Of a DNA stretch of 64,000 bases, positions 46,172-46,359 are shown piece by piece; positions within the stretch are counted from its first letter, which is position 1, and each line of letters starts with the position of its first letter. Below the pieces are notes generated by a model, which saw only the letters and a program-made list of their open reading frames with translations, was not told the origin of the DNA and did not search any database. The stretch lies in NCBI RefSeq assembly GCF_045037415.1, contig NZ_CP173438.1. One strand, given 5' to 3'. Made by a program: the position numbers and the translations under genes. Origin of the DNA: Escherichia coli. GTDB lineage: Bacteria > Pseudomonadota > Gammaproteobacteria > Enterobacterales > Enterobacteriaceae.

Positions 46172-46179
46172 TTTGTATT

Positions 46180-46211
46180 GCCTGATGTGACGTGACCACG
46201 TCATATCAGGC
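46180..46211. repeat. REP-like palindromic element / terminator after cheZ
   Basis: GCCTGATGTGACGTG..CACGTCATATCAGGC 15-bp arms with 1 mismatch. Confidence 0.5.
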
Positions 46212-46359
46212 GATGACGCCGCATCCGACAAACGCATACTATGCTTGATGTGTGGCAGTAAAAGCCCTAAATCCCGCCTGTTTTGCCCCTTACTCAAACC
46301 ATTGAACGCTTTGCGCTCTGGCATCATTTACGCTTAATACTCTTTCCAGGATTGGCGAC

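Follow-up and report, generated by a model that had tools for sequence, protein, structure and literature searches.

A probable diverged REP element between cheZ and flhB of Escherichia coli as a candidate 3' end of the che operon mRNA

The palindrome that directly follows cheZ in Escherichia coli is very probably a REP element, and its stem-loop may serve as the protective 3' end of the che mRNA, with Rho-type termination behind it explaining the scarcity of read-through into flhB; for this functional reading we put the probability at roughly 0.55. The DNA analysed, here called the window, is a 64-kb stretch of an E. coli genome that carries chemotaxis and flagellar genes on its plus strand. 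Judged by its match to consensus, the element (REP1) is a diverged Z2-type REP, i.e. an ordinary copy of a known kind of element, and the comparison of alleles suggests that, of the three units in a decaying REP cluster, this alone is still intact. It does not look like an intrinsic terminator, though published data have the che and flhBAE operons separate.

The K-12 annotation places cheZ (b1881) ahead of flhB (b1880), and the gene order in the window is the same. The two genes are separated by 188 bp (46172-46359), a gap that an earlier note on this DNA had rightly recognized but had put at 190 bp. The features of the gap and its flanks are as follows.

45527-46171, plus strand: cheZ coding sequence, 214 aa, last gene of tar-tap-cheRBYZ (open reading frame list; order matching K-12)
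46169-46171, plus strand: cheZ stop codon, TGA (sequence)
46177-46214, plus strand: REP1, probable diverged Z2-type REP hairpin (inverted repeat, RNA fold, match to Z2 consensus)
46205-46230, minus strand: REP2, putative remnant of an inverted Y-type REP (TGTCGGATGCGGCGTCATCGCC...), second arm lost (allele alignment, local score 18)
46217-46346, plus strand: untranslated C-rich, G-poor stretch, candidate Rho loading region (composition scan)
46242-46279, plus strand: REP3-like remnant, TGCTTGATGTG... then ...AAAGCCCTAAATCCCGCCT, oriented as REP1 (direct repeat, local score)
46262-46359, plus strand: flhB class 2 FlhDC-dependent promoter and 5' leader (allele invariance, cross-genus conservation, ChIP-seq)
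within 46262-46359, plus strand: conserved promoter block AAAAGCCCTAAATCCCGCCTGTTTTGCCCCTTACTCAAACCATTG
46348-46351, plus strand: flhB Shine-Dalgarno sequence, AGGA
46360-47508, plus strand: flhB coding sequence, GTG start, 382 aa (open reading frame list, K-12 annotation)

The imperfect inverted repeat with 15-bp arms that the earlier note had placed immediately after cheZ is real and lies at 46177-46214. Its core, GCCTGATGTGACGTG-AC-CACGTCATATCAGGC (46180-46211), forms 15 pairs including one G-T and is extended by AUU/GAU, so that the repeat search returns arms of 18 nt (46177-46194 and 46197-46214) that are 89% complementary and separated by a 2-nt spacer. As RNA, the segment 46165-46245 folds at -30.3 kcal/mol (z = -5.23), compared with -16.45 +/- 2.65 for 200 dinucleotide shuffles, none of which folds as well. 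The stem starts 6 nt past the cheZ stop in its extended form and 9 nt past it when counted from the GCC of the core, i.e. with 5 or 8 nt, respectively, between the TGA and the first paired base. The hairpin takes up just the first ~45 nt, or about a quarter, of 46172-46359, the remainder of the gap being made up of REP remnants and the flhB promoter.

A REP consensus search, which the earlier note had proposed as a check, puts the Z2 match of this hairpin far above background. For this search, TGCCTGATGTGACGTGACCACGTCATATCAGGC was scored against the three E. coli REP consensus sequences (Y, Z1 and Z2), which reportedly go back to the work of Bachellier and Gilson. Ungapped, REP1 agrees with the Z2 consensus at 26 of 37 positions, a threshold at which shuffled windows yield 0.33 hits per 64 kb. 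In local alignment it scores 20 against Z2, the background of 3000 random 55-nt segments of the window having a mean of 7.8, a 99th percentile of 12 and a 99.9th percentile of 17. The window contains 13 GCCKGATG seeds, none of which besides REP1 scores above 14, and REP1 is thereby the sole REP-like locus within the 64 kb; the same consensus finds copies elsewhere in K-12. As a positive control, the REPs downstream of K-12 fliC, which are contained in the FliX/FliX-S RNA (PMC10578931), were detected at 34/35 and 29/30. REP1 also has the arm motifs GCC(G/T)GATG ... (C/T)ATC(A/C)GGC, namely GCCTGATG at 46180-46187 and TATCAGGC at 46204-46211, and it is extragenic, lying within the cheZ-flhB gap; it would be transcribed as part of the che mRNA.

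In the foot of the hairpin REP1 has no CTAC/GTAG, the sequence being GGCGATG in the window, GGCGGTC in K-12 and GGCCTAC in the orthologue from another Escherichia genome (L009) alone. The CTAC at the hairpin foot (GTAG on the other strand) is the conserved tetranucleotide at which the REP-associated transposase recognizes and cleaves its target. Because this foot is lost, REP1 appears to be a decayed copy that is probably no longer mobilizable; the loss has no effect on hairpin formation. An Rfam search of 45800-46700 (E <= 10) returned no known structured RNA family, only noise and sub-threshold hits to naRNA4, a REP-derived family, at 18.5 bits against a gathering score of 59.5. The K-12 RefSeq annotation holds no feature in the gap, but since it holds none at the canonical REPs downstream of fliC either, this absence is uninformative.

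The cheZ-flhB gap was found in 5385 of 5426 complete E. coli genomes, in several forms. An alignment of seven E. coli alleles, with the allele of L009 added, and both ungapped and local-alignment scans of the gap alleles for REPs reveal a graded series. In the 209-bp gap of L009 there is a canonical Z2 REP (34/37) with the GGCCTAC foot, followed by a short linker and an inverted Y-type REP. In the 201-bp gap of K-12, HS and most E. coli, the foot and the linker are lost and both REPs are kept, the K-12 cluster comprising a Z2 unit of 26/37 and a complete inverted Y unit of 28/35. In the 188-bp gap of the window, a further 13-bp deletion removes one arm of the inverted Y REP. The deletion lies at an AGGCG microhomology (46208-46212) and makes the REP2 remnant overlap the right arm of REP1; by its sequence it appears to have arisen in the window's lineage by slippage between two AGGCG copies. 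The junction is present in 893 of the 5426 complete genomes (~16%), and the surrounding 2.5 kb of the window is 100% identical to ST131 strains, e.g. EC958, JJ1886 and JJ1887; the window allele is therefore a genuine lineage variant rather than an error.

The third, REP3-like unit is marked by a direct repeat (D1), with TGCCTGATGTG at 46179 and TGCTTGATGTG at 46242. Its local score of 11 in the window is marginal, just under the 99th percentile, and its orthologue in L009 reaches the 99.9th percentile with a score of 17. In the window, the 3' part of the unit runs into the conserved distal block of the flhB promoter. The first hairpin is kept by all four Escherichia alleles, with substitutions that include stem-restoring ones, and the second folds in the longer alleles only. 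If a BIME is taken as at least two complete, alternating REPs with short linkers, then the 201-, 208- and 209-bp alleles qualify and the window does not, as its REP2 lacks one arm, its REP3 is weak and the linker motif is absent.

Several further variations were seen in and around this region. In E. coli AHM8C160RI (L007, positions 270-410, corresponding to window ~46255), flhB is not preceded by cheZ; instead, the 5' end of dgt, which lies on the opposite strand, and the region upstream of dgt abut the flhB promoter just past the place where the REP cluster would be. This points to a large rearrangement that has one of its breakpoints within the gap. A REP-mediated origin of this rearrangement was considered and rejected, no REP being visible at the junction. 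In the ST131-like E. coli S1-THA-01-A (L089, positions 489-1186), which is otherwise 100% identical to the window over 45000-47500, the 3' end of cheY, shortly before cheZ, carries an inserted IS1 family transposase, and the annotated cheY is shortened; this IS1 is thus not an insertion in the gap itself. Within the window, collinearity with K-12 MG1655 reaches back from tar as far as the tRNA gene leuZ (~22857), where it ends; strain-specific DNA next to the tRNA cluster would explain this. The IS1H that MG1655 carries upstream of flhD is missing from the window, the alignment being contiguous at 35437-35444.

On its far side, the gap is occupied by the promoter of flhB, and here 97 of 98 positions (46262-46359) are invariant in the seven E. 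coli alleles. Citrobacter and Salmonella and, more loosely, other genera share a conserved block that resembles TAAAtCCCgyCTTTTTTaCCGCTTACTCT.CCCATTg, with CTGGCAT(C/G)AT after it. Because of this conservation across genera, a TG at 46319-46320 together with CATCAT at 46322-46327 is probably the extended -10 element of flhB. In K-12, the FlhD/FlhC ChIP-seq peak for flhBAE was reported at 1964280 in old coordinates (Fitzgerald et al., PMC4183435). With an offset of ~+1977 from old to current K-12 coordinates, under which the peaks for fliA and fliL likewise lie 65-68 bp ahead of their genes, the flhBAE peak falls ~66 bp upstream of the flhB start, at ~46294 in the window. Expression of flhBAE also dropped from 137 to 0 in a delta-flhD strain (PMC4183435), and the peak and this flhD dependence together identify the last ~100 bp of the gap as the class 2 flhB promoter. 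A sigma-70 promoter scan of the gap returned no consensus promoter, which fits an activator-dependent class 2 promoter. Two small open reading frames with TTG starts, one at 46245-46337 (30 aa) and one at 46283-46411 (42 aa), overlap the conserved promoter or flhB, are unsupported and were set aside.

The distal block of this promoter, AAAGCCCTAAATCCCGCCT (window 46251-46279), can be aligned to the Y-type REP consensus along its right arm, AACGCCTT--ATCCGGCCT, and in L009 (3231-3285) a score of 17, equal to the 99.9th percentile of background, is reached over the full length of TGCCTGATGTGCGGCGGTAAAAGCCTTAAATCCCGCCT. The same block is also conserved in Citrobacter and Salmonella, where the REP left arm is missing. 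Its likeness to a REP could be chance, or it could reflect a REP inserted against the FlhDC site.

Transcription across the gap has been studied in K-12, whose 201-bp allele has two complete REPs. RT-PCR across the gap, from cheZ into flhB, yielded 'very little product', RNA-seq detected no cheZ-flhB co-transcription, and slight read-through was seen solely under strong FliA overexpression (PMC4183435). The earlier note's statement that the palindrome separates the che and flhBAE operons thus agrees with published data as regards the separation, and those data concern the longer allele; any causal part of the REP in it is conjectural. As for 3' ends, the literature search found no mapping for cheZ and nothing specific on a cheZ terminator, and the supplementary text of Adams et al. 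2021 (Term-seq) has no entry for cheZ or flhB; no Rho data for the site came to light either. In the sequence, the ratio of C to G is 1.7-2.5 over 46217-46346 (78-nt windows). Untranslated C-rich, G-poor RNA of this kind would suit Rho loading.

These elements can be arranged into the mechanism that we favour. The 3' end of the tar-tap-cheRBYZ mRNA would fold as the REP1 stem-loop, of about -30 kcal/mol and 6 nt past the UGA, and this stem would both define the end of the message and protect it against 3'-to-5' exonucleases, a stabilizing role of REP hairpins at mRNA 3' ends being well established (Newbury et al. 1987, as cited in PMC12306157). For polymerases that move beyond the hairpin, release would come from factor-dependent termination of the Rho type in the untranslated C-rich stretch, with the outcome that very little transcription reaches the FlhDC-dependent flhB promoter.

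The position of the hairpin was also compared across Enterobacterales. A scan of genome contigs with CheZ gave 80 loci, and 46 syntenic gaps, in which flhB directly follows cheZ, were analysed (the window plus 45 Enterobacterales loci), folding being done on the first 70 nt. In 39 of these 46 gaps the RNA folds with z < -2, in 40, the window included, the main stem begins within 15 nt of the cheZ stop, and in only eight is there a T-rich tail. The hairpin is of the REP type and at the same offset in Escherichia, Citrobacter and Salmonella; the E. coli alleles all have the same spacing between cheZ and the hairpin, and that of Citrobacter is nearly the same. Among 15 sequences from these three genera, the lower stem is paired in 98.3% of cells, versus 28-46% in slid controls, and the covariation in this stem tracks Y versus Z REP type, such that it may reflect turnover of REP families rather than local selection. 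In Enterobacter, Cedecea, Buttiauxella, Pantoea and others the stem sequence is unrelated, and a true hairpin followed by a T-run takes this position in Leclercia, Kosakonia and Pluralibacter. The 3' stem-loop next to the cheZ stop thus keeps its place although its sequence turns over. Since operons commonly have a hairpin behind their last gene, positional conservation is by itself no proof of a specific role.

Beyond the syntenic set, ~30 of the 80 CheZ loci, all from other Enterobacterales, have no flhB after cheZ and are probably second chemotaxis loci or cases of different synteny. Six such loci that were examined, including L012, L014, L025, L042 and L053 (~3146-3200), show a stem-loop after cheZ and then unrelated sequence, with a T-run after the stem in L012 and L053. 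At seven other loci (L028, L030, L031, L032, L034, L067 and L084), from a Leclercia strain, Enterobacter quasihormaechei, Kosakonia sacchari, K. pseudosacchari, Mixta and a Buttiauxella metagenome-assembled genome, the cheZ-flhB gap measures 1.0-2.4 kb, which implies a gene or element inserted between the operons.

Among the other ways to read the hairpin, one concerns translation rather than the RNA end: the ribosome would have to open the base of the hairpin to reach the UGA and would stall there, with cleavage of the mRNA, rescue by tmRNA and a lowered output of CheZ. According to the account in PMC12306157 of the work of Liang, Rudd and Deutscher 2015, a REP that lies fewer than 16 nt past a stop codon makes ribosomes stall, and less product is made from the gene ahead of it. 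The 6- or 9-nt distance of REP1 falls within that limit, the spacing is constant among E. coli alleles, and the stems of the 40 syntenic gaps noted above begin within 15 nt as well. However, the same account counts 260 of 496 REPs, about half, within the 15-nt distance, which makes compliance weak evidence. The text of the RepRanger supplements makes no mention of cheZ. There is also a general consideration. Terminator hairpins and other 3' hairpins often lie this close to stop codons for unrelated reasons. We regard stalling at REP1 as possible, on a tentative footing; it could act beside a 3'-end barrier, and our analysis leaves room for translational damping of cheZ as a second, non-exclusive role that REP1 may have. 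Since the CheY/CheZ ratio affects chemotaxis, cheZ is a reasonable test case for damping of translation by REPs. A different view is that the element does nothing, i.e. that it is a selfish REP/BIME remnant decaying by small deletions, the operon boundary being set by untranslated RNA plus Rho or by low read-through. REPs are partly selfish DNA and, to our knowledge, many are without a demonstrated function. The stepwise shrinkage of the gap from 209 bp (L009, with a canonical REP and CTAC) through the 201 bp of K-12 to the 188 bp of the window, the missing CTAC foot, the dispensability of REP2 in 893 genomes and the degenerate state of REP3 are all as expected of such decay. Yet the first hairpin is retained in every allele despite substitutions, some of them stem-restoring, and hairpins recur at this offset as REPs in Escherichia, Citrobacter and Salmonella and as non-REP hairpins elsewhere, so that neutrality of REP1 itself seems unlikely.

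The remaining readings fare worse. The earlier note had left the choice between a terminator and a REP; the REP half of that alternative is borne out by the Z2 match above background and by the canonical orthologue in L009, and the terminator half, if a canonical one is meant, finds no support. A Rho-independent terminator, in which the hairpin alone would release RNA polymerase at the end of the che operon, would accord with a strong, GC-containing stem-loop right after the last gene, with the very little read-through in K-12 (PMC4183435), and with the genuine hairpin and T-run of Leclercia, Kosakonia and Pluralibacter at the equivalent position. Against it, the tail that follows the stem in the window, ACGCCGCATC, has a single T in its 10 nt and no T-run, a terminator scan found nothing at 46177-46230 on either strand, and T-rich tails are as rare among the syntenic gaps as stated above; because the U-tract is missing, intrinsic termination at REP1 is very unlikely. 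Finally, the REPs might act as DNA, a REP pair binding gyrase, IHF or another nucleoid protein and thereby insulating the class 2 flhB promoter topologically from the strongly transcribed class 3 che operon. BIMEs do bind gyrase or IHF, and K-12 and most E. coli have a BIME-2-like pair of a Z2 and an inverted Y unit. The window allele, however, has one intact REP and no linker motif, and the literature search found no report of gyrase, IHF or other binding for the cheZ-flhB gap. Since the second REP is missing in 16% of genomes, a DNA-level BIME function, conceivable for the two-REP alleles, is unlikely to be essential, and we consider it most improbable as an explanation of the element.

The protective 3' end with Rho-type termination behind it therefore remains the reading that we prefer for E. 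coli. On a broader scale, a stem near the cheZ stop might be under selection across Enterobacterales, tuning the output of CheZ through ribosome stalling and/or insulating the class 2 flhB promoter from class 3 transcription, a task that a REP would have taken over in Escherichia, Citrobacter and Salmonella; this we hold to be a quite unlikely, speculative extension. If it were true, the 13-bp deletion of the ST131-type allele would measurably change flhBAE read-through or the CheY/CheZ balance and, with it, chemotaxis.

Set beside known systems, REP1 shares with the Y, Z1 and Z2 REPs of E. coli an imperfect palindrome of ~35 nt, the GCCTGATG...TATCAGGC arms and an extragenic, 3'-UTR position, but differs from them in its agreement of only 26/37 with Z2, in the missing CTAC/GTAG foot, and in a loop and upper stem that are off consensus. 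With BIME clusters the locus has in common that neighbouring units alternate, Z2 then inverted Y in K-12, and that the L009 orthologue is canonical, whereas in the window the partner is cut by the 13-bp deletion, leaving a solitary REP plus remnants. Like the REPs that act as 3' stabilizers, such as those of malE-malF (Newbury et al. 1987) and those downstream of fliC, REP1 would be a hairpin that follows a coding region in an mRNA and can stop decay in the 3'-to-5' direction. The fliC REPs lie in the same flagellar regulon as cheZ, are found by the same consensus scan and are contained in the FliX/FliX-S RNA; no stable RNA species is known from the cheZ gap. The REPs described as damping translation (Liang, Rudd and Deutscher 2015, as represented in PMC12306157; nrdAB) resemble REP1 in the placement of the stem, 6-9 nt past the cheZ UGA and within the 15-nt limit, and on the functional side REP1 is a candidate for that group. 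With Rho-independent terminators, REP1 shares a stable, G+C-rich stem-loop at the end of an operon and differs in having no U-tract.
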